64,000 nucleotides of DNA from a virus. The stretch's first letter is position 1. Every line of letters begins with the position of its first letter. The stretch lies in IMG/VR virus record IMGVR_UViG_3300045988_055134, positions 1,364-65,363 of that record; one strand, 5' to 3'. Both the position numbers and the translations under genes were made by a program. The notes under the pieces were generated by a model, which had not been told where the DNA came from, did not search any database, and saw only the letters and a list, made by a program, of their open reading frames with translations. Positions 342-32,761 of the stretch are shown piece after piece.

Positions 342-418
342 GTGGCTGTAGCTCAGGTGGTTAGAGCACTTGATTGTGGCTCAAGTTGTCGTGGATTCAA
401 ATTCCACCAGTCACCCCA
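342..418 (+). tRNA. tRNA-His (anticodon GUG), discriminator C73, CCA encoded; position -1 is T, not G
   Basis: Acceptor GTGGCTG/CAGTCAC, anticodon stem CTTGA/TCAAG, loop TTGTGGC. Confidence 0.8.
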
Positions 419-5391: not shown

Positions 5392-5465
5392 GCGGGGTTA
5401 GGCTATAGGTAGACCATCAGCGTTAAAAGGCTGAAAAAGCGGTTCGAATCCGCAACCCCGCACCA
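5392..5465 (+). tRNA. atypical class I tRNA with an apparent 8-nt anticodon loop GTTAAAAG (UAA or UUA anticodon) and a 3-nt variable loop; CCA encoded
   Basis: Acceptor GCGGGGT/ACCCCGC is perfect; T-arm GCGG-TTCGAAT-CCGC; only the stem TCAGC/GCTGA fits. Confidence 0.5.
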
Positions 5466-11440: not shown

Positions 11441-11515
11441 GACCTTAACAGCAAAGGAATGGACTGTAAATCCGTCGCTTATGCTACGCAGGTTCGAATC
11501 CTGCCCTCCTCACCA
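11441..11515 (+). tRNA. tRNA-Tyr(GUA)-like element lacking a complementary 5' acceptor strand; it abuts the CCA of the preceding tRNA
   Basis: Anticodon arm ATGGA-CTGTAAA-TCCGT, T-arm GCAGG-TTCGAAT-CCTGC, 3' CCTCCTC-A-CCA. Confidence 0.45.
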
Positions 11516-11628
11516 CTATATGCGGAGGTAGGGAAGTGGTCAAACCCAACGGAACCAAAAACAATAGGTCTAGAATTTAATCTCCCTTGTCCAAGGGAGC
11601 GACTAAAAATCAAAAGGAGATTGATACA

Positions 11629-13116
11629 ATGAATACTTTTATGAACGCTATGAAGCAGGACACTAACTTCACTCTGACTGAGAATGGCGCTATTACTCAT
11701 AAGTCTACGCTAAATGGACTTATGGATCTTTTTGCGCTTGGAGGCGCTTATCGTCAGCGCACTGATGCAGATTGCATCACTCTGTTCAAGGCTGCTTTTG
11801 ATGAGGACGAGGCTCATGCGCTGAAGTGTCTGTTTTATCTGCGCGATGTGCGTGGTGGACAGGGAGAACGTCGTTTCTTCCGCGTGGTTTCTCGTTGGCT
11901 TGCCTTCAATGAAACTGCAGCAATGCGCCGTAATCTGAAGTTCGTGCCCGAGTATGGTCGCTGGGATGATTTCTACGTCTTTGTCGGCACTCCTCTGGAG
12001 GACGAGGCTTTCAAGATTATGCGGCATCAGCTTGCGCTCGATGTTTCTTGTAAGACTCCGTCGCTTCTTGCTAAGTGGCTGAAGTCTGAGAACACTTCTT
12101 CTAAGGAGTCGCGCCGTCTGGCAACGATCTCTCGCAATCATTTCCATATGACTCCGAAGGAGTATCGCAAGACTCTGTCTGTACTGCGCGAGCGCATCCG
12201 CATTGTCGAACGTCTTATGTCTGAAAACCGTTGGGATGAGATTGAGTTTGATAAAATTCCTTCTCGCGCAGGCATTATCTATCGTAACGCATTTGCGCGT
12301 CGCGATATGATTAAGGCAAAGTATGAGGCTTTTGCTAAGGATACTGAAACTACCGTTAACGCTGGTGCGCTGTATCCGCATGACATTGCTCATCGTGCCT
12401 TCAACTCTCGCCATAAGAGCCTGGAAGAGCCTGAGCGTCTAATGCTCCAGAAATATTGGGATAATCTGCCCAATTTCTATGGCGACAATGCAGAGAATGG
12501 GATCGCGATTGTCGATGTTTCTGGCTCTATGTCTGGTGTTCCTATGGAAGCGGCTGTTTCTATGGGCGCATACATTGCAGATAAGGCGCACGGTCCGTTT
12601 GCTAACCACTTCATTACTTTTTCTGGCTCTCCGAAGCTGGTAAAGTTCGAAGGCGCAGATATTACGGATAAGCTGTGTCGCTGCATTAGCGCGGATTGGG
12701 GTATGAATACTAATATCGAAGCTGTTTTCGATATGCTGCTTGCGACCGCTATGAAGCAGTCTGTCCGTGCGGAAGATATGCCTGAGCGCGTATATATCTT
12801 TTCGGATATGGAATTTGATCGCTGTGTAACGAGTAATCATTTTACTGGCGGATGGTTTCGTGGCATGGAAATGCAGCAGATCAACACTCTCTTTGAAGAC
12901 ATGAAGGCTAAGTGGGCGCGTTGCAGTTACAAGATGCCGAGCTGTGTCTTTTGGAACTTGAACGCGCGTAATAACAACATTCCCGCGATTGGGGATGGCT
13001 TTAGCTATGTAAGCGGCTTTAGCCCTATTATGATCCAGCAGATTCTGAGTGGTAAGGACGGACTTGATCTTGTTCTTGAGAAGCTGGATAGTGAGCGTTA
13101 CGCGCGGATTCACTAA
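11629..13116 (+). CDS. vWA-domain protein (MIDAS motif DVSGSMSG), DUF2828/TROVE-like
   Basis: Motif content; AAAAGGAG RBS. Confidence 0.7.
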   Translation: MNTFMNAMKQDTNFTLTENGAITHKSTLNGLMDLFALGGAYRQRTDADCITLFKAAFDEDEAHALKCLFYLRDVRGGQGERRFFRVVSRWLAFNETAAMRRNLKFVPEYGRWDDFYVFVGTPLEDEAFKIMRHQLALDVSCKTPSLLAKWLKSENTSSKESRRLATISRNHFHMTPKEYRKTLSVLRERIRIVERLMSENRWDEIEFDKIPSRAGIIYRNAFARRDMIKAKYEAFAKDTETTVNAGALYPHDIAHRAFNSRHKSLEEPERLMLQKYWDNLPNFYGDNAENGIAIVDVSGSMSGVPMEAAVSMGAYIADKAHGPFANHFITFSGSPKLVKFEGADITDKLCRCISADWGMNTNIEAVFDMLLATAMKQSVRAEDMPERVYIFSDMEFDRCVTSNHFTGGWFRGMEMQQINTLFEDMKAKWARCSYKMPSCVFWNLNARNNNIPAIGDGFSYVSGFSPIMIQQILSGKDGLDLVLEKLDSERYARIH

Positions 13117-13120
13117 TATA

Positions 13121-13155
13121 AACGAGGAAATAGAAATATTTCCTTGTTTTTTCTT
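13121..13155 (+). terminator. rho-independent terminator
   Basis: AACGAGGAAATA/TATTTCCTTGTT followed by a T-run. Confidence 0.7.
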
Positions 13156-13226
13156 TTCTATTTGAAAATAATAAATAATTATTATATAATATATACATAA
13201 GGAAATAGGAAAGGAAGTTTATAAGA

Positions 13227-14045
13227 GTGTCTTATAATATGTATAAAGAAGAATTTAGCAGCATTTTTGAGCTTATGAACACGCTTAAAGAACGACCAAA
13301 CAATAGGTTTATGAGAGATGAACATAGTTCTCAAAAGACTGGTAACTCGAATTGGAGCGGTACAAATACTTATGAGGAAGCTGAATCTCTCTTGATTTAT
13401 GGATATCATGATCCAGTTAAAAATATCAAGAGCAATCTGATAAAGAACAAAAAGTTGGTTAGTAAGATGTATAATCTTATTCCTAAGCCGATTGCAACTA
13501 ATCAGATTGTAGGTTTCGTGCCTAATGTACCAAATGCGCTAATGGGCTTGCCGAAGTCTATGATTTCAGTAGAGAAAATCAATAGAAAGAAGAAAACTAT
13601 TTCTATTATCTATGCTACCGGTGGCGCGGCTATGGTAGAAAAAGAAGCGCTAGAAAGTGCGGGTGCAGCTCTTGTATCTGCTATTAACCTTATTGAACTT
13701 GCGGGAATTCAGACCAGACTCTCGATAGGATTTATTCCTTCTGTCTATAATAGACAGATAATTTTCCCTACTGTAAATATCAAAAATTTCAATGAGCGCT
13801 TTAGTCTGCAAAAGATTTGTTTCCCTATGGTTCACCCCAGTATGTTTAGGCGTATTGGTTTTAAGTATCTAGAGACTTGTCCTGGTATGGAAGAAGATTT
13901 TTCTTGTGGATATGGTAGACCAGCCTCGTTAGAAGAGATTAAAACTTGCTTAAAGGAAAAAGATACTTACATTATCAACAGAGAGTGGATTACAGATCAT
14001 GATAACAACATTGAAGAAATTCTTAAATACATGGAGGTATGCTAA
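13227..14045 (+). CDS. hypothetical protein; possible partner of the MoxR/vWA pair
   Basis: AGGAAAGGAAG RBS. Confidence 0.5.
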   Translation: MSYNMYKEEFSSIFELMNTLKERPNNRFMRDEHSSQKTGNSNWSGTNTYEEAESLLIYGYHDPVKNIKSNLIKNKKLVSKMYNLIPKPIATNQIVGFVPNVPNALMGLPKSMISVEKINRKKKTISIIYATGGAAMVEKEALESAGAALVSAINLIELAGIQTRLSIGFIPSVYNRQIIFPTVNIKNFNERFSLQKICFPMVHPSMFRRIGFKYLETCPGMEEDFSCGYGRPASLEEIKTCLKEKDTYIINREWITDHDNNIEEILKYMEVC

Positions 14046-14046
14046 T

Positions 14047-15006
14047 ATGGATAACGAGAAGATGCTTAAAGCAATGATGCAGGCGGTGACTAATGCCGTA
14101 GTTGATGTTAACGCGGACGAAGTTTTCGATCAGCTGTATCCTAAGATCGAGGAAAAGATCCATCAGACTTATGGTTTTCTCCCCGAAATTCATGAAATTC
14201 GCTCTCCCGAAGGTATTCATAAGATTGTCGGCACTACGCATGAGAAGTTCGATGAAGTAGCCAATATTGTTAATCTGGATATTCCAGTATATCTGACCGG
14301 TAAAGCAGGCACCGGCAAGAATGTTATTTGTCAGCAGGTTGCGGAAGCTCTGGGTCTGGATTTTTACTTCACCAATGCCGTTACGCAGGAGTACAAACTC
14401 ACTGGCTTTATTGATGCAAATGGCAATTATCAGGAGACCCAGTTTTATAAGGCTTTTACGAAGGGCGGTCTGTTCTTCTTGGACGAGATGGATGCGTCTA
14501 TCCCCGAGACTCTGATTATTTTGAACGCGGCCATCGCGAATAGATACTTCGATTTCCCCACCGGTAAAGTCAATGCGCACCCTAATTTTAGAGTTATTGC
14601 TGCCGGTAACACGGTTGGTACCGGTGCTGATAATAACTACACTGGTCGCTATTGCTTGGATAGAGCAAGTCTTGATCGTTTTGCAATGGTGAATATCGAC
14701 TATTCTGAGAAGATTGAGATGGCAATGGCGCATGATAACAAGAAGCTCGTTTCTTTCTGTCATTGTTTTCGTAATATTACTGATAAAACCGGCATTGAGT
14801 GTCTGTTCTCTTATCGTACTCTTGATAGAATTGCAAAACTGGAGCAGGTAATTAGTAACCTGTCTGAAGTTATGGCTATCTCTCTGCTCAAGGGTATTGA
14901 CGAAGATACTCTTACTATTCTGCGGAATGAACTGTCTAATGCGCCCGGAATGTCTAACAATAAGTATGCTAAAGCAATTATTAATAGCAATGCTTGGGAT
15001 TTTTAA
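14047..15006 (+). CDS. MoxR-like AAA+ ATPase (AAA_5; GKAGTGKN, FLDEMD)
   Basis: Walker A/B motifs; GGAGGT RBS. Confidence 0.75.
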   Translation: MDNEKMLKAMMQAVTNAVVDVNADEVFDQLYPKIEEKIHQTYGFLPEIHEIRSPEGIHKIVGTTHEKFDEVANIVNLDIPVYLTGKAGTGKNVICQQVAEALGLDFYFTNAVTQEYKLTGFIDANGNYQETQFYKAFTKGGLFFLDEMDASIPETLIILNAAIANRYFDFPTGKVNAHPNFRVIAAGNTVGTGADNNYTGRYCLDRASLDRFAMVNIDYSEKIEMAMAHDNKKLVSFCHCFRNITDKTGIECLFSYRTLDRIAKLEQVISNLSEVMAISLLKGIDEDTLTILRNELSNAPGMSNNKYAKAIINSNAWDF

Positions 15007-16839: not shown

Positions 16840-17145
16840 ATGGGACGAATTACAAGACATAGCAAAGAGCGTATTGTTCAGCGAACCGATGGTTGCACTA
16901 GTTTTGCAGAAGCTAAAAAGCTAGCTAAGCAAGCTAAACGCTCCGGTGCGACGATTAATCAATTCCAGAAGTTTCCGCGATTTTTCTCTTACTTACAGAA
17001 CAAAAGAAATCAAACAAATACTTGCTCTATCAGAATATATCGGGGAAACATCTACATCTGGAGAGGTAAGGATACGCTCATTACCGCGCATCCTATTCCC
17101 GAGAGATATGTTAAAGAAATGGAGGCTATTGATAATGAAAAATGA
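16840..17145 (+). CDS. DUF4258-like (RelE/ParE-fold) small protein
   Basis: ITRHSKERIVQR motif; GAGAGGAAGAGG RBS. Confidence 0.4.
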   Translation: MGRITRHSKERIVQRTDGCTSFAEAKKLAKQAKRSGATINQFQKFPRFFSYLQNKRNQTNTCSIRIYRGNIYIWRGKDTLITAHPIPERYVKEMEAIDNEK

Positions 17146-17926
17146 AATTATGCAGCGTGTTCATGATCATCTGGAGGAAGCAAGAGAGACATTTGATAGC
17201 TCTCGTATCGTAGGTATTTTCCTTCAAGGCTCTCAAAATTATGGTTTGCAAATCCCGACTAGTGATGTGGATACCAAATTGATCCTCACTCCTACCTTTA
17301 AGGAGATTGTTTTCAATAAGAAACCAATCAGTACCACTCATGTTCGTGCCAACGATGAGTATACTGACCTTAAAGATATTCGCCTGATGTTCTCTACTTT
17401 CCGCAAGCAAAATCTCAATTTCATCGAGATCCTGTTCACTCCTTATCTGTGGGTAAATCCGCTTTTCGCAGATGAATGGAATAGACTGACTGCGGAACGC
17501 GAGAAAATTGCGCATTATTCTCCTTATAGTGCGGTAAAAACCATGAAGGGTATTGCTATGGAGAAGTACCATGCGATGGAGCATGAGTATCCTAGTAAAG
17601 TCGCCGTTCTCGCTAAATATGGCTACGACCCAAAACAGCTGCACCATCTACTGAGAGTACAGGAGTATATCCATCGTTATACTGAAGGCGAGTCTTACGA
17701 GGATTGTCTGCATCCCCGCAATCCAGAATTTCTTGTCGCAGTTAAGCAGGGATATTTTAATCTTGAGCAAGCGCGCATTTCTGCCAACAGTGCGATGGAA
17801 GATGTTCTTGCAACTGCGGACGCATTTTGTGAGAAAGTAGGCAAGTCTTTCGATCCTGAAGTCGATGAACTGCTTGATGATGTGCAATATAATATCGTGA
17901 AAGCCGCAATCCAGAAGGAGTTTTAA
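17135..17926 (+). CDS. Pol-beta superfamily nucleotidyltransferase (G-S-x10-SDVD)
   Basis: GSQNYGLQIPTSDVD motif; GGAGG RBS. Confidence 0.65.
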   Translation: MKNEIMQRVHDHLEEARETFDSSRIVGIFLQGSQNYGLQIPTSDVDTKLILTPTFKEIVFNKKPISTTHVRANDEYTDLKDIRLMFSTFRKQNLNFIEILFTPYLWVNPLFADEWNRLTAEREKIAHYSPYSAVKTMKGIAMEKYHAMEHEYPSKVAVLAKYGYDPKQLHHLLRVQEYIHRYTEGESYEDCLHPRNPEFLVAVKQGYFNLEQARISANSAMEDVLATADAFCEKVGKSFDPEVDELLDDVQYNIVKAAIQKEF

Positions 17927-20191: not shown

Positions 20192-21457
20192 ATGGCATAT
20201 TTTGGTTTGATAACTCGACTGCAGAACTGCCGCAAGGACGAGAACTCTGATCGTCTGTATCTCGCCGATTGCTTTAATGAAGGCGTCATCATCGGTCCTG
20301 ACATGAAGACCGGCGACCCTGTTCTGTATCTGCCTACCGACGGCGAGATTGACCATTGGTTTGGTGATAAATTCAAACTCTTCCGCAAGAATGAGGATGG
20401 TACTGAGCAGGGTGGTTATCTGGAGAATAATGGCCATGTGCGGGCGATTAAGCTCCGTGGCAACCAGAGTTCTGGTATTGTCATTTCTCTTCCTCATGTC
20501 TATGAGGTATTTGGCGATCAGCATTGGGAGGATGGCGACAAGGTAAATACCGTCAATGATAAAGAGTTCTGCCGCAAGTATATCCCGAAGCGTAAATATC
20601 CGCAGACTGCGGCCAAGACTTCTTATAAGGGTCGTAAGGCAGAGGGTATTGTATATCCGGATTTTGCAATGCACATTGATACTGCGCAGCTTGCTTACAA
20701 TCTTGATGCGTTCCGTCCGGGTGATCAGTTGAACATGACTCTCAAGATGCACGGTACTTCTCAGCGTTCTATGAATACTGTTGCGGAGCTGCCGAATGGC
20801 TTCTTTCGTCGTCTGTTTCATATGAAGAAGCGTACTAAGCAGGCTTATGTACTTGGTACTCGTCGTTGTGTAGTTTCTGAGGATGATGGTGGCTACTACG
20901 GTGATAATAAGTTTCGACTGCCGCATCACGAGGCGCTGAAGCCGTTCCTTGAGCCGGGCATGGAAGTCTTTTACGAGGTCGTAGGTTACTATGGTCTTGG
21001 CGATGGAGATACTATCATGCCGATTGGCGATAACTCGAAGCTGAAAGATAAGGCTTTCCAGAAGCAGTTCGGCAAGCGTTCTATTTTCTCTTACGGGTGC
21101 GAGCCGGGTGAGTCTCATATGTGGATTTACCGCATCACTTCTGAGAACGGCGAGCGCGAGTGGACTCCTGACGAGATTACTGCATGGTGCGATAAGCATG
21201 GCTTTAATCGAGTACCAGTGATTGACAACTTTGAGTTTACTACCGTAGATGATCTGTTGAAGCGCATCAATGATTACTTCGAGGATCTTGCAGACCCGAT
21301 TGGCAAAACTCATGTCAAGGAGGGCGTTGTAATCCGTATTGTAAATCGTCGTTCTTTCACTGCTTTCAAGTCTAAGACCTACGAGTTTAAGGTACTTGAA
21401 GGTATCATTAAGGAGACTGAAACCGCTCCAGATATGGAGGAAGCGCAGGAGGTATGA
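20192..21457 (+). CDS. RNA ligase, Rnl2/Rnl5-like (motif I KMHGTS) with N-terminal extension
   Basis: KxHGT nucleotidyltransferase motif. Confidence 0.6.
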   Translation: MAYFGLITRLQNCRKDENSDRLYLADCFNEGVIIGPDMKTGDPVLYLPTDGEIDHWFGDKFKLFRKNEDGTEQGGYLENNGHVRAIKLRGNQSSGIVISLPHVYEVFGDQHWEDGDKVNTVNDKEFCRKYIPKRKYPQTAAKTSYKGRKAEGIVYPDFAMHIDTAQLAYNLDAFRPGDQLNMTLKMHGTSQRSMNTVAELPNGFFRRLFHMKKRTKQAYVLGTRRCVVSEDDGGYYGDNKFRLPHHEALKPFLEPGMEVFYEVVGYYGLGDGDTIMPIGDNSKLKDKAFQKQFGKRSIFSYGCEPGESHMWIYRITSENGEREWTPDEITAWCDKHGFNRVPVIDNFEFTTVDDLLKRINDYFEDLADPIGKTHVKEGVVIRIVNRRSFTAFKSKTYEFKVLEGIIKETETAPDMEEAQEV

Positions 21458-22620: not shown

Positions 22621-23433
22621 ATGCTTTCTGTTAAAACTTTCTCTTACCCCGGAATTTGGCTGCCAGTTATTCAGAGTCATTTTCCAGATGGGACTTTACG
22701 TTTGGAACCTCCGGAGTTGAGTAATACTTTTGCTTCCGCAATACGGTGGGACTATGAAAACGATGCAGAATTATTCTCGCTTATTTGTTTAAAGAACCAC
22801 TATTGCAATGATAATATCTCGCTTTATATGCCCTACTGTCCGCACGCCCGCATGGACAGAGTAAAGAGTTCTAATGATGTTTTTACTCTCAAGAGTTTTG
22901 CAGGCATTATCAACTCGCTTAATTTCTCTAAGGTAGTTGTCTATGATGCACACAGTAATGTAAGTCTAGCACTTATTGATCGTGTTGAAAATCGTGATAA
23001 CACTCCTTTTGTTGAACGTGCAATCAACAAAATCAGCGATCCAGATCTTGTTATGTATTATCCTGATGAGGGAGCAATGAAGAGATACTCTGAACAGTTT
23101 AATCGTCCTTATAGTTTCGGCATGAAGAAGCGAGATTGGGCGACTGGTAACATTAAAGGCATTGATATTATCAACAAGGAAGCTGTAAGAGGCAAGAATA
23201 TTCTTATTGTTGATGATATTTGTTCGCGCGGCGGCACCTTCTTCCATTCTGCTAAGGCACTTAAAGCTGAGGGTGCGAAGAATATTTATCTCTTTATCAC
23301 TCATTGCGAAACCACTATCATGGAAGGAGAGCTAATCAAGAGTGGACTGATTAAGCACATCTTTACGACCAACTCTCTTGCTAGTAATTTCCCAACTAAT
23401 CTCATCACTGTCGACCCTATTATTCTTTCATAA
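22621..23433 (+). CDS. ribose-phosphate pyrophosphokinase (Prs)-family enzyme; candidate ADPR-PP synthetase (Adps-like)
   Basis: PRPP-binding motif ILIVDDICSRGGT and overall Prs-like layout. Confidence 0.7.
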   Translation: MLSVKTFSYPGIWLPVIQSHFPDGTLRLEPPELSNTFASAIRWDYENDAELFSLICLKNHYCNDNISLYMPYCPHARMDRVKSSNDVFTLKSFAGIINSLNFSKVVVYDAHSNVSLALIDRVENRDNTPFVERAINKISDPDLVMYYPDEGAMKRYSEQFNRPYSFGMKKRDWATGNIKGIDIINKEAVRGKNILIVDDICSRGGTFFHSAKALKAEGAKNIYLFITHCETTIMEGELIKSGLIKHIFTTNSLASNFPTNLITVDPIILS

Positions 23434-23448
23434 AGGAGTTTTGCATAA

Positions 23449-25173
23449 ATGTTTAATCCTCTGTTAATGATTGATTTCTATAAGAGCACTCACCATGAGC
23501 AGTATCCCGCGGGATTAACTAAGATGGTTAGTTACTATACTCCTCGTATGAGTAGGCTGCAGGGAGTTGATAAAGTTACTCTCTTTGGTCTGCAAGCCTT
23601 TATTAAAGAATATCTTATTGCAGGCTTCAACGATAGTTTCTTTAATCGCTCGGAGGATGAGGTAGTGACCGAGTATGAACGTGTGCTCAATGCCACGCTC
23701 GGTAAAGGTGCTTTCCAGTCTGATAAGATTAGAGAACTGCATCGACTCGGTTATTTGCCGCTTGAAATCTCCGCTGTCCCGGAAGGTACTAGAACTGCGA
23801 TTGGAGTTCCACAGATTGAGATCACTAATACCCATCCAAACTTTGTTTGGCTTGTAAATACCATTGAAACTCTGCTGTCTGCAACTATGTGGCATACGCA
23901 GGTATCCGCGGAAGTCGGCTATCGGTATCGTCAGATTGTGCAGCAGTATCACGATATTAGTTGTGATGATGATGTTTCTGTCGCTCGACTGCTTGGTGAT
24001 TTCTCTATGCGCGGTCAGCAGTCTGCAGAATCCGCGATTAAGAGTTCTGCGGGTTGGTGTCTTTCTTTCTTGAATACTGCTACTGTACCCGCAATTATGT
24101 GGCTTGAGAAGAACTATAATTGTGATTGTGCTACTGAGCCTGTTGCTTATGGCGCAATCTCTACAGAGCACAGTGTTATGTGTTCTAATTACGCGGTTGA
24201 TGGTGATGAGATCACTCATATCCGCAGACTTCTAACAGAGATTTATCCTCACCACAATTTCTCTATGGTATCTGATAGTTATGACTATTGGAGACTCGTA
24301 GATAAGATCCTTCCGCAGTTGAAAGACGAAATTATGGCGCATGATGGTTGTCTTTCTATTCGTGGTGACAGCGGCGATCCTGTGGAGATTATCGCAGGAA
24401 AAGAAATCTTCTATCTCGACGAGAAGGAATGGAAGAACCTAAAAGATGACCCCAGCGAATTCGTTGCTGAGTTCTTTGAACGAGACTTAAAGGAGGACAC
24501 TCAGCAGATTTTCTCTTACAATGGAGAGTATGCTCTTGCTGACATCACAGTCGAATGGACTAATGAGCGTGGGGCTTGGACTGATTGCAAATATTGGTTC
24601 ATTGAAGGCTATAACGTCAAACTGACTGAAAACTATGAGCTTACTTCCGAAGATAAAGGAACCGTCTGGCGCCTGTGGGATATTTTCGGTGGCACCATCA
24701 ATAGCAAGGGTTATAAGGTTCTTGATCCCCACATTAAAGCTATCTATGGTGATAGTATTACTCCTCAGCGTTGCGCTCGTATTTATCATCGCCTTGTGAA
24801 TAATGGATTTGCCATTAACAACACTTCACTTGGCGTGGGTTCGTTCTCGTTCATGTGTCTTGAGGAAGATGGTAAGTTTAATCCTTATACGAGAGATACT
24901 TTCGGCATTGCGGTAAAAGCTACTTACGCAGAAGATGCAAATGGCAAGCCTATTATGATCTATAAGCAGCCTAAAGCGCTTAGCTGGAAGAAGTCTCAAA
25001 AGGGTTGCTGTCGAGTTTGTCTTGATGGTCAGAGTTATGAAGATGAGCTGACTTGGAATGAACACCTTGGTGAAGACAACCTGCTTCAACCCATTTTCCG
25101 TAATGGCACTATGATTAAGGAGGATACATTGCATGATATTAGAGCAAGACTCTACCGAGAAGGTTTTATGTGA
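23449..25173 (+). CDS. nicotinamide phosphoribosyltransferase family (NAMPT/NadV/Namat-like)
   Basis: N-terminus NPLLMIDFYKSTHHEQYP resembles NAMPT. Confidence 0.8.
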   Translation: MFNPLLMIDFYKSTHHEQYPAGLTKMVSYYTPRMSRLQGVDKVTLFGLQAFIKEYLIAGFNDSFFNRSEDEVVTEYERVLNATLGKGAFQSDKIRELHRLGYLPLEISAVPEGTRTAIGVPQIEITNTHPNFVWLVNTIETLLSATMWHTQVSAEVGYRYRQIVQQYHDISCDDDVSVARLLGDFSMRGQQSAESAIKSSAGWCLSFLNTATVPAIMWLEKNYNCDCATEPVAYGAISTEHSVMCSNYAVDGDEITHIRRLLTEIYPHHNFSMVSDSYDYWRLVDKILPQLKDEIMAHDGCLSIRGDSGDPVEIIAGKEIFYLDEKEWKNLKDDPSEFVAEFFERDLKEDTQQIFSYNGEYALADITVEWTNERGAWTDCKYWFIEGYNVKLTENYELTSEDKGTVWRLWDIFGGTINSKGYKVLDPHIKAIYGDSITPQRCARIYHRLVNNGFAINNTSLGVGSFSFMCLEEDGKFNPYTRDTFGIAVKATYAEDANGKPIMIYKQPKALSWKKSQKGCCRVCLDGQSYEDELTWNEHLGEDNLLQPIFRNGTMIKEDTLHDIRARLYREGFM

Positions 25174-25594
25174 TCCATATATCTACACTCATAATGCCGC
25201 TGAGAGACTATACAATGAATATAAGAAGTATGGCAGTATAATCATAGCATTTGACTTTGATTATACTGTCCATAATTTCAAAGATGAACAATGGCGCTAT
25301 GATGGTGTAATTAACTTGCTGCGGGCATGGCAACCATATGCCAAGCTCGTTGTATTTACAGCTTCCGCGGAAGAGCGTTATCCATATATTGAAAAATATT
25401 TACGCGATAATGATATTCCATTTGGCTATATCAATGAAGATATTCTTCCACCAGAAAAGCATACCCCAGCGCGAAAAATTTATTACAATATTTTGCTCGA
25501 TGATCGCGCTGGGCTTGGTAATGCGTTCGCAATATTGAGAGAAGTATACAATAGACTTGAAGCAGAAGGAGAACTTAAAACATGGAGAAAGTAA
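25133..25594 (+). CDS. HAD-superfamily phosphatase/nucleotidase-like
   Basis: DxDxT motif FDFDYTV; LDDR. Confidence 0.5.
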   Translation: MILEQDSTEKVLCDPYIYTHNAAERLYNEYKKYGSIIIAFDFDYTVHNFKDEQWRYDGVINLLRAWQPYAKLVVFTASAEERYPYIEKYLRDNDIPFGYINEDILPPEKHTPARKIYYNILLDDRAGLGNAFAILREVYNRLEAEGELKTWRK

Positions 25595-26316
25595 TTCCTA
25601 AGATTTTAGATTGGACTAAGAACTATTTTGTGCAGAATGGCGCAGATTGCAAGGCAATCATCGGTATTTCTGGCGGTAAAGATAGCACTGTAACTGCGGC
25701 GCTTCTCGTTAAAGCGCTCGGAAAAGACAGGGTAATTGGTGTAAAGATGCCGCAGGGCAATCAGCATGACATCGACATTGCCAATAAAGTAATTGATTAT
25801 CTCGGTATTCGGAGTTACGAAATCAATATTGGCGATGTCTGTGAATCCTTATATCATGCTATTGATGAGGGGTATGATTTTGATAGTACGGTTAAAAACA
25901 ATCCCCAAGTTACTTCTAACTCTCCTGCCCGCGTCCGCATGACAGTGCTTTATGCTATTGCTGCGCTTGAACATGGTAGAGTAGCAAATACCTGCAACAA
26001 GAGCGAGGATTTTATTGGTTACTCTACTAAGTTTGGCGACTCCGCAGGTGATTTTTCTCTTCTGTCGAACCTTACAGTAAAGGAAGTTCTTGCTATTGGT
26101 AGAGAACTGGGCTTGCCGGAAGAGTTTATTAGCAAAGCACCGGAAGATGGTCTTAGTGGAAAAACTGACGAAGATAATCTTGGTTTTACCTACAAAGAGC
26201 TAGATGATTTTCTTGTATTTGGCAATGTACCTGACTACGACACCTTTGCCAATATTATGGAACGTCACCACCGTAATCTCCATAAGGTAGAACCGATGCC
26301 TACTTTTCCGTGGTAA
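25582..26316 (+). CDS. nadE: NH3-dependent NAD+ synthetase
   Basis: PP-loop GISGGKDST. Confidence 0.8.
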   Translation: MEKVIPKILDWTKNYFVQNGADCKAIIGISGGKDSTVTAALLVKALGKDRVIGVKMPQGNQHDIDIANKVIDYLGIRSYEINIGDVCESLYHAIDEGYDFDSTVKNNPQVTSNSPARVRMTVLYAIAALEHGRVANTCNKSEDFIGYSTKFGDSAGDFSLLSNLTVKEVLAIGRELGLPEEFISKAPEDGLSGKTDEDNLGFTYKELDDFLVFGNVPDYDTFANIMERHHRNLHKVEPMPTFPW

Positions 26317-26485: not shown

Positions 26486-27394
26486 ATGATCCCTGGACTC
26501 TATAAGATCTTTGACCACTGGCACGCTGAAGGCACGGTGTATATCTACTCTGATCCCCACTTCAATGATGAAGAGATTGTAGCAGGTGTGCCGGAACGAC
26601 CCTCCGCAGAAGAACAGGTTAAACTTATCAATAGTAAAGTTGGTAAGAAGGATACGCTCATTATTCTTGGAGATTGCGGCGATCCAGCTATGTGCGCCAA
26701 ACTGCGTGGTTACAAGGTACTTATTATGGGAAACCATGACGCCGGTCGCAGTAACTATGAGCGCAAAAAGATTTCTCGTAAGTTTCCCAAAGAAGTCTTT
26801 CAGAAATCTGAGGCTCTTGATGAAATGAAACGCGTCTATCCCGGTTGTCAGTATTTTATTACCGAAGGATATGACTTCCACTCTCCCTTTGAGTATTGGG
26901 AAGTCTTTGCGGACAATAATCTCTTTGACGAGATCTATGAAGGGCCTCTCATGATTGGTGAGAAACTTATTCTATCGCATGAACCGCTTCCTATGATGCC
27001 TTGGGTATTCAACATTCATGGTCATATCCATGATCGTTGTCACAAAGATGATGACAGACATCTGAATGTTTGCTCTGATGTAATTAACTACACGCCAGTC
27101 AATCTGAACAGGTTAATGAAGAGAGGATTAACGGCAAAAATCCAATCTGTGCATAGACAGACCATTGATGTAGCTACGAAAAGAGCGAGAAAAAGAAAAC
27201 TGAAGAACAAAGAATGTTATGATTGTAAACATTTTTACCGTGAATGGTTCCGCGGCCATGCTGCTTGTAGATGTCATAAGCATGGTTCTTTAGATTGCGA
27301 CCAGCCTAAGGAACATAGACCTGATACCGCTGCGAAACATTGCAAAGATTACTGCTACGAAAAGGGGCATCAAAAACAGAAATGTTATTTTTAA
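26486..27394 (+). CDS. calcineurin-like metallophosphoesterase with C-terminal Cys-rich tail
   Basis: DPHFND...GDCGD...GNHD motifs. Confidence 0.7.
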   Translation: MIPGLYKIFDHWHAEGTVYIYSDPHFNDEEIVAGVPERPSAEEQVKLINSKVGKKDTLIILGDCGDPAMCAKLRGYKVLIMGNHDAGRSNYERKKISRKFPKEVFQKSEALDEMKRVYPGCQYFITEGYDFHSPFEYWEVFADNNLFDEIYEGPLMIGEKLILSHEPLPMMPWVFNIHGHIHDRCHKDDDRHLNVCSDVINYTPVNLNRLMKRGLTAKIQSVHRQTIDVATKRARKRKLKNKECYDCKHFYREWFRGHAACRCHKHGSLDCDQPKEHRPDTAAKHCKDYCYEKGHQKQKCYF

Positions 27395-27812: not shown

Positions 27813-27962
27813 TGAAGCTACGTAAGCTATCTAAGACTCTCGAAAACATGGAACGAGATCTCGCCAAAATGGACGATGAAACTTTCTTCGCTCTTCTTGG
27901 GACAAGTATTGAGGAACTTAAACAAAAAGCGAAAGAAATGGAAGGAGCAAACAAAGAATGAC
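27813..27962 (+). CDS. 49-aa hypothetical protein
   Basis: Short ORF coupled to the next gene. Confidence 0.35.
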
Positions 27963-28800
27963 TGATAAACTTGGTATGCGCATGAAAGAGTTTTATGAAA
28001 CGGTTCCTAAGGCTAGATTGATGCGCAGAACTCCTGTCGCAATCCGCATTGATGGCAAGGTTTTCCACACTTTCACTCGTGGTTTTAACAAGCCTTTCGA
28101 TCATATTCTTGGAACTGCTATACAAGAAACTATGAGATACCTGTGTCAAAATATTCAAGGTTGTGTACTTGGATATACCCAGAGTGATGAAATTACTCTG
28201 ATCCTTGTAGATTATAAACGACTAAATAGCTCCGCATGGTTTGATTATGAGGTTCAGAAAATGTGCTCTGTCGCCGCATCTATGGCGACTATGGCTTTCA
28301 ATAAAGCCTTCCATAAGGCAGTTGAAGACGCAGATTTCTTCTGGAAAACTAGTCTAACTCCTCAAAGCGTTGAAATCCAGCAAGGGCATCAAAAGTACAT
28401 GGAAATTCTGCGGGCCGCCAGCTCTAAAGGCGCCATGTTTGATGCACGTTGCTTCAATATCCCGAGAGAAGAAGTTACTAACCTTATCTATTGGCGCCAG
28501 TTAGACGCAACCCGCAATTCTATCCAGATGGCAGGCCAGGCTAATTTCTCTCATAAAGAACTTCAAGGTAAATCTTGTATCCAAATCAAGAAAATGCTCT
28601 CTGATATTGGTATTGAATGGGACGATTATCCCATTTCTTATCAGCGCGGCTCTTGTTGTATTAAGACTTATATCCAAGATGTCGCTCCCGATGGAATTGA
28701 GCATATTCGTTCTGAATGGATTATTGATAAAAACATCCCGCTGTTTATCGGAGAGGGACGTGAATATATCGAATCTCTAATCCAGAGCGAGGAGGAATAA
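27958..28800 (+). CDS. Thg1-like protein (tRNA-His guanylyltransferase family, 3'-5' nucleotide addition)
   Basis: VAIRIDGKVFHTFTRGFNKPFD...YTQSDEITL signature. Confidence 0.75.
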   Translation: MTDKLGMRMKEFYETVPKARLMRRTPVAIRIDGKVFHTFTRGFNKPFDHILGTAIQETMRYLCQNIQGCVLGYTQSDEITLILVDYKRLNSSAWFDYEVQKMCSVAASMATMAFNKAFHKAVEDADFFWKTSLTPQSVEIQQGHQKYMEILRAASSKGAMFDARCFNIPREEVTNLIYWRQLDATRNSIQMAGQANFSHKELQGKSCIQIKKMLSDIGIEWDDYPISYQRGSCCIKTYIQDVAPDGIEHIRSEWIIDKNIPLFIGEGREYIESLIQSEEE

Positions 28801-28802
28801 TT

Positions 28803-29282
28803 ATGGCTGAATGGCAAAGAGGAACAGGATGGAAAGAATGGTTTGAAATCACTGGCGCAGATGGAGTAGATTTCCACCCAATTGGTCAAGATCCGCGTAA
28901 AACCCCGGTCATGATATTGCAGTCTAATACCAAGGAAGATATTCTAGAAAGAAAAGTCGGCTATCCAAAGAGTGACTATTCATTTTGGAAGAAAATCAAT
29001 GGTAAGAAGTATTATATCTCTCTTGATAATCCAATGGAACTAACCCATAAAATTAATGTAACAGTTGAGGTAGAGTACGTCATAGGCCATCTGCAAAACG
29101 GCTATTATAATGGAAACCTTGAGCTTTCTGATGAAGAGTATAAAAAGTTCCGAAAAGCACCGGAGGTTTTTCTATTAACCCATCCGAATCTATGGGAAGA
29201 TTGGCCTCTTACAGTAGATAGCTATGAGGTTGATGAAATTGGAGATATTGACAAAATCTATTTTACCGATCAAACTAATTAA
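28803..29282 (+). CDS. hypothetical protein
   Basis: ORF of 159 aa. Confidence 0.5.
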   Translation: MAEWQRGTGWKEWFEITGADGVDFHPIGQDPRKTPVMILQSNTKEDILERKVGYPKSDYSFWKKINGKKYYISLDNPMELTHKINVTVEVEYVIGHLQNGYYNGNLELSDEEYKKFRKAPEVFLLTHPNLWEDWPLTVDSYEVDEIGDIDKIYFTDQTN

Positions 29283-29758: not shown

Positions 29759-29959
29759 ATGAGATGGCTATGTTTCTTTGGTGTCCATGAGTTAGAAGAC
29801 AAAGATCGTTTTTCTAATTTGCTTGATGACACGTGGATAAAGAAATGCAAATACTGTAACCGTTATACGGTATATTGTCATGGTATAAAAACAAATATGT
29901 CGCAGAAAGCAGCTAAACGCCTTATAAGAAAGGTAAATAGCATTGCAACGGGAGAATGA
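29759..29959 (+). CDS. Cys-containing small protein
   Basis: GGGAGGG RBS. Confidence 0.4.
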   Translation: MRWLCFFGVHELEDKDRFSNLLDDTWIKKCKYCNRYTVYCHGIKTNMSQKAAKRLIRKVNSIATGE

Positions 29960-30041
29960 TTGCAAATACTGTAGTGCACCAAATACAAGATGTATTCATT
30001 GGCAAGGTATCTTTTGTGAGCTAGATATGGAGGTACGAAGA

Positions 30042-30560
30042 ATGACGACTGAACTTAAAGTAATGGTAGGTGTACCCGGTAGTGGTAAATCTACTTGGGT
30101 CGAGCAAGAGATTGCTCGACTGGAAGATGATCACCGCACCACTTGTGTAGTTTCCAGAGATTTCGTGCGGAAGTCCCTCTTAAACGATCACGATGGCTAC
30201 TTCGATAAGGAAACCGAAGTATTCAATGAGTTCGTGCGGCAGATCAATGAAGCCATGGAGCTTGGTATTGATGTTGTGTTTGCTGATGCAACGCATATCA
30301 GTCCTGCTTCTCGAGCCAAATTGCTTGGTCGGTTGGCAGCAGACCCGCACACTAAGCTGACCTTTGAGGTTATTGATGTTCCTCTTGATGTTGCTATTAA
30401 GCGCAATGCACAGCGTAGTGGTTTCGCGAGAGTGCCGGATTCTGCAATCAAGAACATGAAGAAAGGATTTTCTATCCCGAGTGCAAAGGAGTTCCCTAAG
30501 ACTAAGTGGGGCTTTTCGGATATTAAAATCAATGTACATGGATACGAGAGAAAAGATTGA
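30042..30560 (+). CDS. polynucleotide 5'-kinase (T4 Pnk kinase-domain-like)
   Basis: GVPGSGKSTW...DVP..VAIKRN..R motifs parallel T4 Pnk; GGAGG RBS. Confidence 0.75.
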   Translation: MTTELKVMVGVPGSGKSTWVEQEIARLEDDHRTTCVVSRDFVRKSLLNDHDGYFDKETEVFNEFVRQINEAMELGIDVVFADATHISPASRAKLLGRLAADPHTKLTFEVIDVPLDVAIKRNAQRSGFARVPDSAIKNMKKGFSIPSAKEFPKTKWGFSDIKINVHGYERKD

Positions 30561-30656: not shown

Positions 30657-31226
30657 GTGATAACACTGAATATTTATGTTTCTAGCGACTACCACCTGAA
30701 CCATGATAAAGAATTTATCTGGAAGGCTCGCGGTTTTGATAGTGTCGAAGAGATGAATGAAGCCATTATCACACGAAATAATGAGCTTGTTTCTCCAGAT
30801 GATCCTTTGATTATCTGCGGCGACCTAATGCTTGGTGGAAGCGAGAACCTTGAAAAAGGTATTGAAATGCTAAACCGCATGAATGGTAAGAAACTCATTG
30901 TTGGCGGTAATCACGATACTCGCGCTAGACGCGAAGCATATCTTAAAGCAAATATTCCGGTATTTGATGCTTATGCTTTCACTTATCGCAAGTATCATTT
31001 TTACGCATCGCATTATCCAACTTTGACCGGCAATCTTGAAAAAGAGTCGCTCAAAAAGACGGTATGCAATCTTTTTGGGCATACCCATCAGACTACTAAC
31101 TTCTACAATGAAATTCCTTTTATCTACCACGTAGGTGTTGATTCACATAATTGCTATCCCGTTCATCTCGATACTGTAATCGAAGATATGGAACAGCAGG
31201 CAAAGAAATGTATTGAAATGCTTTAA
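30657..31226 (+). CDS. calcineurin-like metallophosphoesterase (candidate 2',3'-phosphatase or phosphodiesterase)
   Basis: SDYHLNHD...GDLM...GNHD...GHTH motifs. Confidence 0.7.
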   Translation: MITLNIYVSSDYHLNHDKEFIWKARGFDSVEEMNEAIITRNNELVSPDDPLIICGDLMLGGSENLEKGIEMLNRMNGKKLIVGGNHDTRARREAYLKANIPVFDAYAFTYRKYHFYASHYPTLTGNLEKESLKKTVCNLFGHTHQTTNFYNEIPFIYHVGVDSHNCYPVHLDTVIEDMEQQAKKCIEML

Positions 31227-31273: not shown

Positions 31274-32761
31274 ATGGAAATTCTAACTACTATCCTTCCT
31301 TTTGTCCCCGTAGCGATTATCGTAATTGCGATTATCGTATTTCTTGTTTCGAGCTATGTAAAGGCTCCGCCGGATGTGGCATATATTATCTCTGGTATGC
31401 ACAAGAAACCGCGAGTACTTGCTGGTAAGGCTGGTATTAAAATTCCTTTCCTTGAGCGAATGGATAAGTTGGCACTTGGCGCTATTCAGATCGACGTAAA
31501 GACAGGATCTGCCGTTCCCACCGCGGAATACATCAATGTACGCGTTGACTCCACTGTTTCTGTACGAGTAGGACAGACTGATGAAATGATTGCTCTTGCT
31601 GCACAGAACTTTCTGAATGTATCCCGTGCGGAGATTGCTCAGAAGATTAACGATCTCCTTGAAGGTAATATCCGTGAGATTGTAGGTCAGATGAAGCTGA
31701 CCGAGATGGTTGGCGACCGCAAGGCATTCTCCGAAAAGGTACAGGAAAATGCAGTGCCTGATCTGGCTCGTTTCGGCCTGGAACTGGTTTCCTTTAATGT
31801 TCAGAACTTCTCTGATGACAATGATGTTATCACCAACCTTGGTATTGATAATGTCGAGCAGATTCGCAAGGATGCTGCTATTGCTAAGTCTAATGCCCAG
31901 CGTGAGATTGCAGTCGCTGAAGCAGAAAATGCTAAGGCTTCTAATGACGCTCGTGTAAAGGCTGAGGAAGAGATTGCTAAGCGCAATAATAGTCTTGCTA
32001 TCCAGAAGGCTCAGCTGAAGCAGGAATCCGATACTAAGCAGGCTCAGGCTAATGCTGCTATGGAAATCGAGTCTGAGAACCAGCGCAAGCTGCGTGATGT
32101 TGCAGCGGCTGACGCAGATATTGCTCGTCAGGAGAAGGAAATCGACCTTAAGGAACGCGAAGTTACTATCAAGGAACGTGCTCTGGAAGCTGAGGTAAAG
32201 AAGACCGCTGAGGCTAAGAAGTATGCCGCTCAGCAGGAAGCTGATGCGCGACTCTACGCAACGCAGAAGCAGTCTGAGGCTGATCTCTATGAGCGTCAGA
32301 AGACCGCAGAGGCTGAGCGTTTCGAAGCAGAGCAGCGAGCTGAAGCACAGCGTGCAACCGCGGAAGCTATTCGTATTCAGGGTGAGGCTGAAGCCGCAGC
32401 TGCAAAGGCTCGTGGTGAAGCAGAGGCAGCTGCTATTCAGGCAAAGGCTGAGGCAGAAGCTGAAGGTCTTATGAAGAAGGCAGAAGCCATGAAACAGTAT
32501 GGTGAAGCCGCTAAGATGGATATGCAGATGGAAGCCCTCAAGATGTACTTCCAGCAGCTCCCGGCTATCGCAGAAGCAACTGGTCAGGCGTATACCAATG
32601 TTGATAAGATTGTGATGTTTGGCGACAACACAAGCAAGCTCTCTGGAGATATTATCAACAATGTCGCTCAGATTTCTGAGGGACTGAGTGAGTCTCTCGG
32701 CATTGATGTAAAGGCTATGCTGGCTGGCTTCCTTGGTGGAAAGATCGCTGATAAGAACTAA
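31274..32761 (+). CDS. SPFH/band-7 (flotillin/YqiK-like) membrane protein with long Ala/Glu coiled coil
   Basis: N-terminal TM, SPFH region, EA-rich repeats. Confidence 0.7.
   Translation: MEILTTILPFVPVAIIVIAIIVFLVSSYVKAPPDVAYIISGMHKKPRVLAGKAGIKIPFLERMDKLALGAIQIDVKTGSAVPTAEYINVRVDSTVSVRVGQTDEMIALAAQNFLNVSRAEIAQKINDLLEGNIREIVGQMKLTEMVGDRKAFSEKVQENAVPDLARFGLELVSFNVQNFSDDNDVITNLGIDNVEQIRKDAAIAKSNAQREIAVAEAENAKASNDARVKAEEEIAKRNNSLAIQKAQLKQESDTKQAQANAAMEIESENQRKLRDVAAADADIARQEKEIDLKEREVTIKERALEAEVKKTAEAKKYAAQQEADARLYATQKQSEADLYERQKTAEAERFEAEQRAEAQRATAEAIRIQGEAEAAAAKARGEAEAAAIQAKAEAEAEGLMKKAEAMKQYGEAAKMDMQMEALKMYFQQLPAIAEATGQAYTNVDKIVMFGDNTSKLSGDIINNVAQISEGLSESLGIDVKAMLAGFLGGKIADKN

Follow-up and report, generated by a model that had tools for sequence, protein, structure and literature searches.

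A phage tRNA-His gene without a templated G-1 in a genome that encodes a bacterial-type Thg1-like protein

Introduction

The bacterial Thg1-like protein (TLP) BtTLP (PDB 4KGK/4KGM; PMC3701042, PMC3061083) adds G-1 opposite C73 of tRNA-His with a kcat/KM of 5500 M-1 s-1, equal to that of yeast Thg1 on its natural substrate, and favors 5′-truncated tRNAs of any identity 5-160-fold over full-length tRNA-His (PMC3061083). With a C73-CCA template, its addition in vitro can extend to several G residues (PMC6471195). What bacterial-type TLPs do in the cell has been a question since 2010, their hosts templating G-1 themselves and no natural damaged substrate being known (PMC3061083). Here we analyze a 64,000-nt stretch of phage DNA, part of a larger phage genome (IMG/VR record IMGVR_UViG_3300045988_055134, positions 1,364 to 65,363; hereafter the window), that encodes a BtTLP-type enzyme and a tRNA-His(GUG) gene with C73 and no templated G-1, a concrete natural enzyme-substrate pair. 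A functional link between the two is plausible rather than demonstrated. The reading that we tentatively favor, with somewhat less than even confidence, is that the TLP is a general templated polymerase for the repair of tRNA 5′ ends that also adds G-1 to the phage tRNA-His as an opportunistic substrate.

BtTLP is the best match of the window TLP in both sequence and fold and shares its carboxylates and its activation and transfer residues, and by homology Watson-Crick-templated 3′-5′ addition (G-1 opposite C73, refilling of 5′ truncations) is expected of the window enzyme. The two differ in that the window TLP is phage-encoded and carries a helical insertion of ~35 aa, and in that B. thuringiensis templates its own G-1 and offers no obvious natural -1 substrate, whereas the window genome encodes a G-1-less C73 tRNA-His. 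Eukaryotic Thg1 (yeast, human) belongs to the same superfamily, uses the same three-step chemistry and yields the same product, G-1 on tRNA-His; it reads the GUG anticodon and adds G opposite A73 without a template, and the window protein lacks its HINNLYN motif. Archaeal Thg1/TLPs (PMC3245924; summarised in PMC5499578) likewise act on a C73 tRNA-His lacking an encoded G-1, adding a templated G-1 after a canonical RNase P cut, but they are cellular enzymes of lineages in which a missing G-1 is accompanied by the enzyme, whereas the two are uncoupled in phages. Their sequence similarity to the window TLP is low (MaTLP, E 2e-07).

Among viruses, other phage TLPs (phrog_4717: CBB_152, Bc431v3 gp143, Fnu1 gp147, XacN1 ORF126) belong to the same family, at no more than 58% identity to the window TLP. 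Their routine annotation is 'tRNA-His guanylyltransferase', with some speculation on what they do (PMC3601020, PMC7824862); help from the TLP to the phage tRNA-His has already been suggested in the CBB paper (PMC5259590), and a 2019 review of TLPs makes no mention of phages. The Pnkp/Rnl repair system of phage T4 and the RNA-repair sets of jumbo phages (PMC7824862) resemble the locus in their kinase, phosphoesterase and RNA ligase genes clustered with tRNA genes and in their presumed purpose of restoring tRNAs damaged in host-phage conflict. T4 reseals breaks in the anticodon loop, whereas a TLP would restore the 5′ strand of the acceptor stem, which no host nuclease is known to damage.

The phage tRNA-His gene has U at position -1

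The window has a G+C content of 39.5%, all of its genes lie on the + strand, and its start falls inside a tRNA cluster. ARAGORN called 14 tRNA genes within the first 11.5 kb, one of them tRNA-His(gtg). Relatives of the phage come from gut metagenomes, and one homologue has been binned to Ruminococcus. The tRNA-His gene and its upstream junction are arranged as follows.

264-340, + strand: tRNA-Arg(ACG), directly upstream of tRNA-His, with an encoded CCA at 338-340 (ARAGORN; Rfam, 64.6 bits)
341, + strand: single-nucleotide spacer T, position -1 of tRNA-His, which cannot pair with C73 (direct reading of the sequence)
342-418, + strand: tRNA-His(GUG) (ARAGORN; Rfam tRNA, 63.1 bits at 342-415)

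The seven base pairs of the acceptor stem are formed by GTGGCTG (342-348) and CAGTCAC (408-414). Because U8/A9, at 349-350, fix the register, position +1 is G342; the anticodon GTG lies at 376-378, the discriminator C73 at 415 and the encoded CCA at 416-418, and T341 is the sole base separating the CCA of tRNA-Arg(ACG) from tRNA-His. A tRNA-His without a templated G-1 had been proposed at 342-418 in an earlier note on this DNA, and ARAGORN, Rfam and direct reading confirm it, with T341 opposite C73. We also sought an alternative His tRNA with an encoded G-1: the 64-kb window has no tRNA-His other than the gene at 342-418, and each relative shows one tRNA-His, with T-1, even where the DNA scanned holds 22-27 tRNAs.

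Compared with the classical bacterial tRNA-His, the gene has the GUG anticodon and C73 and lacks the G-1 that pairs with C73, usually accompanied by U-2; its -1 is T341 and its -2 is A340, the final base of the upstream CCA. Nor does it fit the α-proteobacterial type, which combines the lack of G-1 with A73 (PMC3064791), as its discriminator is C415. It fits a class of phage U-1/C73 tRNA-His genes, delimited in the present analysis rather than a published family, whose members have U-1, C73 and an acceptor stem of 7 bp and lie within phage tRNA clusters.

At position -1, U is the base that RNase P favors for canonical cleavage. In bacteria, U-2 and a G-1 paired with C73 shift the cut to between -2 and -1 (PMC5499578). 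The window tRNA-His has A at -2 and U at -1, and with no G-1:C73 pair to move the cut, RNase P is expected to cleave between U-1 and G+1. The product should be a tRNA with 5′-p-G1, a 7-bp stem and a free C73-CCA end.

The same genome encodes a bacterial-type TLP

27958-28800, + strand: bacterial-type Thg1-like protein (TLP), 280 aa, predicted templated 3′-5′ nucleotidyltransferase (Pfam PF04446, phrog_4717, BtTLP 4KGK)

The product carries the signature IRIDGKVFHTFTRGFNKPFD at residues 29-48. Pfam PF04446 (Thg1) matches residues 8-169 (E 1.4e-27, 96.6 bits against a gathering cut-off of 29.2), and phrog_4717 covers the full-length protein (7.6e-84). Sequence comparison yields BtTLP (4KGK/4KGM) at E 7e-55 and the archaeal MaTLP (5AXK) at 2e-07, whereas human, yeast and Candida Thg1 match at just E 1e-3 to 3e-3. 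The window TLP has ATRNSIQ where yeast Thg1 has HINNLYN (aligned to THINNLY), a motif that serves as a lead rather than a curated rule for separating Thg1 from TLPs. The earlier note had named a Thg1-like enzyme at 27958-28800 with reference to eukaryotes; membership of the Thg1/TLP family is borne out by PF04446, while the far stronger match to BtTLP places the enzyme with the bacterial TLP type and not with eukaryotic Thg1 sensu stricto.

Residue roles are taken from BtTLP (PMC3701042). D32, D77 and E78 of the window TLP align with the active-site carboxylates D30, D75 and E76 of BtTLP (D29, D76 and E77 of hTHG1) and are invariant in 26 family members. The residues of BtTLP for activation and nucleotidyl transfer (E12, R28, K43, S74, R131 and R147) correspond to E14, R30, K45, S76, R164 and R180, which are invariant across the 26-member family alignment except for K45; BtTLP M158 aligns with M191, and every BtTLP residue with an assigned role is present. 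In a Foldseek search of the PDB with an AF2 model of the TLP (pLDDT 81.3, pTM 0.81), all 32 matches with E <= 1e-3 were TLP or Thg1, the top one being BtTLP 4KGM (E 6e-19, TM 0.78-0.81 on the target). The helical insertion (residues ~124-158) is conserved in, and specific to, the family of the window TLP. By these measures the protein is an intact member of the Thg1/TLP superfamily and a new member of a known family, for which 3′-5′ addition is predicted.

The U-1/C73 gene is conserved in a family of gut phages

No close DNA match to the window was found among GenBank phages, and identity between the TLP and GenBank phage sequences reaches at most 58%. Homologues of the TLP number thousands in protein databases, and in IMG/VR there are at least 222 related TLP loci, most of them from one large metagenome dataset, on contigs about 70-200 kb long. 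Judged by sequence, the window TLP belongs to a separate, abundant gut-metagenome clade.

Pattern searches recovered tRNA-His from 18 relatives, and all 18 show an upstream tRNA ending in CCA, a single T and then GTGGCTG, with the T-1/C73/CCA arrangement conserved throughout (18/18). On seven of the 18 contigs a TLP was confirmed, at a distance of ~30 kb that matches the window, and T-1 and a TLP occur together on every related contig where both could be checked (7/7). The junction is kept in relatives whose TLPs are 66-69% identical to that of the window, and is the same in a more distant 'agcaccaT' sub-lineage. Because the tRNA clusters lie ~28-30 kb off, none of 80 related IMG/VR TLP loci has a tRNA-His within 10 kb of the TLP.

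U-1/C73 is common among phage tRNA-His genes

As a background we used an arbitrary IMG/VR sample, collected with a search pattern that left the 3′ end free and accepted only genes with a canonical D stem and T loop; the sample is restricted accordingly. It contains 84 distinct genes with good acceptor stems, 64 of them from loci with at least three tRNAs. The -1/73 combinations are distributed as follows.

G-1/C73 (classical): 56/84 at all loci; 38/64 at loci with >=3 tRNAs
U-1/C73: 21/84 at all loci; 20/64 at loci with >=3 tRNAs
G-1/A73: 5/84 at all loci; 5/64 at loci with >=3 tRNAs
U-1/A73: 1/84 at all loci; 0/64 at loci with >=3 tRNAs
U-1/U73: 1/84 at all loci; 1/64 at loci with >=3 tRNAs

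U-1/C73 thus makes up about 25-31% of the sampled phage tRNA-His genes (sample loci IMG/VR L081-L200 and L310-L362), and A or C at -1 never occurs among the 84. A separate sample limited to C73-CCA genes has G at -1 in 70, T in 16 and A in 2. With T-1 in roughly a quarter to a third of the phage tRNA-His genes sampled, its occurrence in a phage with a TLP is not statistically remarkable.

U-1/C73 genes are also present in cultivable phages. The tRNA-His of the T4-like Serratia phage CHI14 and of Klebsiella phage Mineola reads ...TTGAT/GTGGCCG...CGGTCAC-C-CCA, that of crAss001 reads CT/GTGTTAG...CTAACAC-C-CCA, and GenBank examples lie at NC_041996.1 73512-73584, NC_055748.1 69451-69526 and NC_049977.1 3817-3893. 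At least 36 T4-like Klebsiella and at least 27 crAss-like Bacteroides phage records exist, and neither Klebsiella nor Bacteroides appears among the ten commonest organism names (the tenth with four records) of the TLP-positive GenBank records; we therefore take both clades to be without a TLP. No TLP was found around 120 sampled tRNA-His loci, in stretches too short to be informative, and a GenBank search with concatenated U-1 tRNA-His sequences returned Streptomyces phages only. The tRNA-His of BRock was considered as a clean U-1 example and rejected, as it has U73 and a mismatched acceptor stem.

The presence of U-1 in many phage tRNA-His genes, including those of T4-like and crAss-like phages, contradicts the bacterial textbook rule and may matter more than the link to the TLP. 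How such tRNAs are histidylated, and whether they are at all, becomes a question: TLP-less phages with U-1/C73 must use a route independent of G-1 or obtain G-1 otherwise. We found no paper remarking that C73 phage tRNA-His genes lack a templated G-1, and the histidylation route of U-1/C73 genes appears unaddressed in the literature.

A different irregularity is seen in five distinct viral tRNA-His genes (IMG/VR L084, L086, L102, L156 and L161), which have a G-1:C73 pair and a U1-C72 mismatch. They read g/TTGGCTG...CAGTCAC-C-CCA, with the mismatch at the top of the acceptor stem.

TLP-encoding phages differ in their tRNA-His genes

A TLP is carried by 161 GenBank phage records. Staphylococcus phage PMBT8 is devoid of tRNA genes, and the authors of vB_CoeS_P1 report none. 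Variovorax phage V45v66 has eight tRNAs and no tRNA-His in 150 of 159.6 kb scanned, mycobacteriophage Pound has only tRNA-Gly and no tRNA-His in the 50 kb around its TLP, and no tRNA-His is present in the 50-kb block around the TLP of Serratia phage BF. The hosts of at least 23 of the 161 records are α-proteobacteria (Caulobacter, Brevundimonas, Sinorhizobium or Ruegeria), and at least in Caulobacter tRNA-His identity is independent of G-1 (PMC3064791). The comparison of TLP with tRNA-His rests on five independent TLP-encoding lineages that have the tRNA.

XacN1: classical tRNA-His with U-2 and G-1:C73
Fnu1: G-1, A73, U-2 (L219:44279-44353)
CBB: G-1, A73, U-2 (L229:39-116)
Bacillus phage Bc431v3: C-1, A73 and a C1:G72 pair (L228:62-136, minus strand)
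Window family: U-1, C73

U-1/C73 is not enriched with the TLP (1/5 lineages versus 20/64 in the background, Fisher p = 1.0). Any departure from the classical gene is seen in 4/5 lineages versus 26/64 (Fisher p = 0.16), a trend only. A73 occurs in 3/5 lineages versus 5/64 (p = 0.01), a value that is untrustworthy because the background pattern demands the canonical D stem and T loop that those three genes lack; G-1/A73 with U-2 is also found in Klebsiella phage KP13-26 (L363:35-112), whose host genus is not commonly TLP-positive. Across phages, a missing G-1 and a TLP are not coupled in either direction. For Rak2, considered as a TLP-less counterpart to CBB, the search yielded no tRNA-His. In GenBank, the annotated tRNA-His genes of both CBB and crAss001 begin one base late.

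Genes around the TLP suggest a possible role in RNA repair

Several candidate RNA-repair genes, assigned at family level, lie in the same part of the window, together with one open reading frame next to the TLP.

16946-17926, + strand: pol-beta-type nucleotidyltransferase, weakly RlaP-like, with a possible RNA-repair role (phrog_388, 1.6e-20; Pfam RlaP, 0.007, below cut-off)
20192-21457, + strand: RNA ligase (Pfam RNA_ligase, 2.7e-09; phrog_968 RNA ligase, 1.3e-47)
26486-27394, + strand: calcineurin-like metallophosphoesterase upstream of the TLP, candidate RNA 3′-end healing enzyme by inferred function (Pfam Metallophos, 6.5e-06; phrog_547 phosphoesterase, 1.7e-28)
28803-29282, + strand: 159-aa open reading frame (ORF) that starts just behind the TLP gene (no match in Pfam or PHROG; in 9/55 related loci)
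29943-30560, + strand: P-loop polynucleotide-kinase-like protein (Pfam AAA_33, 1.7e-18; phrog_505 polynucleotide kinase, 4.7e-21)
30657-31226, + strand: second metallophosphoesterase (Pfam Metallophos_2, 9.9e-07; phrog_547, 1.9e-40)

The gene order is phosphoesterase, TLP, kinase, phosphoesterase, with an RNase T-like exonuclease also upstream of the TLP, and the kinase, phosphoesterase and RNA ligase domains all lie within ~10 kb of the TLP. The window kinase is homologous to the PNK of Pound (gp117), which starts ~600 bp past the end of the Pound TLP, and to the kinase domain of the Pnkp-like gp169 of Fnu1. Other TLP lineages also have repair genes nearby: an RNA ligase ~4 kb away in XacN1, a Pnkp-like ligase in Fnu1, and an RNA ligase and a CCA enzyme in Serratia phage BF. 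A repair role has been proposed for jumbo phages (PMC7824862), and the neighborhood fits such a role for the TLP. The 159-aa ORF was rejected as a conserved partner protein of the TLP: beyond the 9/55 related loci, it was not found near the TLPs of other lineages.

Functional interpretation

If the TLP serves general 5′-end repair with opportunistic G-1 addition, the tRNA cluster would be transcribed as a polycistron and host RNase P would cut between U-1 (341) and G+1 (342), freeing a 5′-p-tRNA-His with a 7-bp stem and single-stranded C73-C-C-A. The TLP would then activate the 5′-phosphate with ATP or GTP and add one G opposite C73, and the resulting G-1:C73 pair would be recognized by ordinary bacterial HisRS. 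On other, 5′-clipped tRNAs the TLP would refill the acceptor stem with the 3′ strand as template; the neighboring kinase would supply the 5′-phosphate on 5′-OH ends, and other lesions would fall to the phosphoesterases and RNA ligase. The anatomy of the genes, the family of the TLP, its intact catalytic residues, the conservation among related phages and the gene neighborhood are observed; where RNase P cuts, whether G-1 is added in vivo and whether the enzyme repairs tRNAs are inferred. Because TLPs are also found in phages that have no tRNA-His gene and in phages of α-proteobacteria, which do not use G-1 (PMC3064791), the enzyme must do more than add G-1. For the gut-phage family of the window, addition of G-1 by the TLP to the U-1/C73 tRNA-His after canonical RNase P cleavage is possible, if on balance doubtful. 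If it does take place, it would be the first natural post-transcriptional G-1 addition outside eukaryotes and archaea, and the tRNA would be the first physiological substrate for a bacterial-type TLP.

The earlier note had offered two roles for the enzyme, maturation of the phage's own tRNA-His and repair of damaged 5′ ends. The second is the better fit to TLP biochemistry and to the local gene context. The first is biochemically credible, given the rate of BtTLP on C73, and what the comparison of phages does not support is the missing G-1 as the explanation of the enzyme: U-1/C73 is common without a TLP, TLPs are common without such a tRNA, and no enrichment is detectable.

Five points weigh against the repair reading with opportunistic G-1 addition. 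T4-like and crAss-like phages retain U-1/C73 in their tRNA-His without having a TLP, and G-1 addition may be unnecessary for whatever such tRNAs do. The kinase or second phosphoesterase stands beside the TLP in just 11-16 of 55 family loci, so that there is no fixed operon. Addition of multiple G residues, as by BtTLP in vitro, would be harmful unless limited in vivo. To our knowledge, there is no nuclease damaging tRNA 5′ ends that such a system would counter, and our literature search found no biochemical study of any phage TLP.

A possible though rather doubtful account is that the two genes have no functional link, the tRNA-His working or being tolerated without G-1, the TLP acting on damaged host or phage tRNAs or other RNAs, and their joint presence being a coincidence. 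The frequency of U-1/C73 in sampled phages, including the TLP-less Tevenvirinae CHI14 and Mineola and crAss001, is consistent with this account, as are the distribution of TLPs independently of tRNA-His status and the preference of BtTLP for truncated tRNAs over full-length tRNA-His. However, an active BtTLP-type enzyme beside a 5′-p C73-CCA tRNA-His should add G-1 fast enough to matter physiologically (5500 M-1 s-1), and a total absence of G-1 addition would need some form of exclusion, such as rapid aminoacylation or EF-Tu binding.

It is unlikely that the genes form a dedicated maturation pair, in which the templated G-1 was given up and the TLP chiefly adds G-1 to the phage tRNA-His, as in eukaryotes and some archaea. 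The tRNA would be an ideal templated substrate, with C73, CCA and a 5′-phosphate after RNase P, and the efficiency of BtTLP with C73-tRNA-His equals that of yeast Thg1 with its natural substrate; the co-occurrence on 7/7 checkable related contigs and the departure of 4/5 TLP lineages from the classical gene (p = 0.16, a trend only) also agree with such a pair. Against it, U-1/C73 is no commoner in TLP lineages than in the background (p = 1.0), XacN1 combines a TLP with a classical U-2/G-1:C73 gene, and at least 23 of 161 TLP-positive phages infect α-proteobacteria, in which G-1 is not used (PMC3064791). TLPs further occur in phages without any tRNA (PMBT8, vB_CoeS_P1) or without a tRNA-His in the scanned part (V45v66), and TLP-less T4-like and crAss-like phages keep U-1/C73.

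That the tRNA-His is a decaying or non-functional copy, its missing G-1 a defect, is very improbable: degenerate tRNA-like genes do lie in the same cluster (93-166, 1585-1661 and 11442-11507), but the gene forms a perfect cloverleaf with GUG, C73 and CCA (63 bits), its sequence and T-1 junction are conserved in relatives with TLPs 66-69% identical and in the more distant sub-lineage, and the consistent U at -1, the base preferred by RNase P, points to selection for clean canonical processing.

Other genes and tRNAs in the window

Just upstream of the phosphoesterase, TLP and kinase genes, the region 22621-26316 encodes PRPP-synthetase-like and NAMPT-like proteins and the NAD synthase NadE, a NAD salvage and synthesis block that may counter a NAD-depleting host defense. 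An SPFH/Band-7 (prohibitin- or flotillin-like) protein is encoded at 31274-32761 near the TLP; such a protein also lies near the TLP in Fnu1 (gp144, L219:25219-26028), and XacN1 ORF080 (L227:11115-12026) is an SPFH/Band-7 protein in the same terminal-repeat region as the XacN1 TLP. Adjoining the tRNA cluster, 11587-15006 encodes a DUF2828/DUF7788 protein (phrog_850 'RNA-binding protein', 1e-122), a DUF7192 protein and a MoxR-type AAA_5 ATPase. 'RNA-binding protein' annotations are also present in Fnu1 and, beside an RNA ligase, in Serratia phage BF, a correspondence at the level of annotation.

All 12 well-formed tRNAs of the window (12/12) have fully paired acceptor stems, and on that ground the TLP was rejected as a mitochondrial-style 5′ editor. 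The tRNA-Ile(GAT)-like gene at 1585-1661 has intact D, anticodon and T arms, the 3′ end CTGGACT-A-CCA and a mismatched 5′ acceptor strand (AGAATAA). An ORF at 1154-1591 with a SocA/Panacea antitoxin domain (PF13274, 1.1e-15) overlaps its 5′ end, and relatives carry an intact tRNA-Ile copy right after another tRNA. Insertion of the ORF appears to have truncated the gene, and because of this truncation its mismatches are no evidence for 5′ editing.

Three further aberrant tRNA-like genes were noted at 93-166, 5392-5465 and 11442-11507. In one, the anticodon loop is shortened and the acceptor stem mismatched; another is well folded, with an 8-nt anticodon loop, GTTAAAAG, read as the four-base anticodon 'taaa'; and one is a tRNA-Tyr(GTA)-like fragment without its 5′ part.

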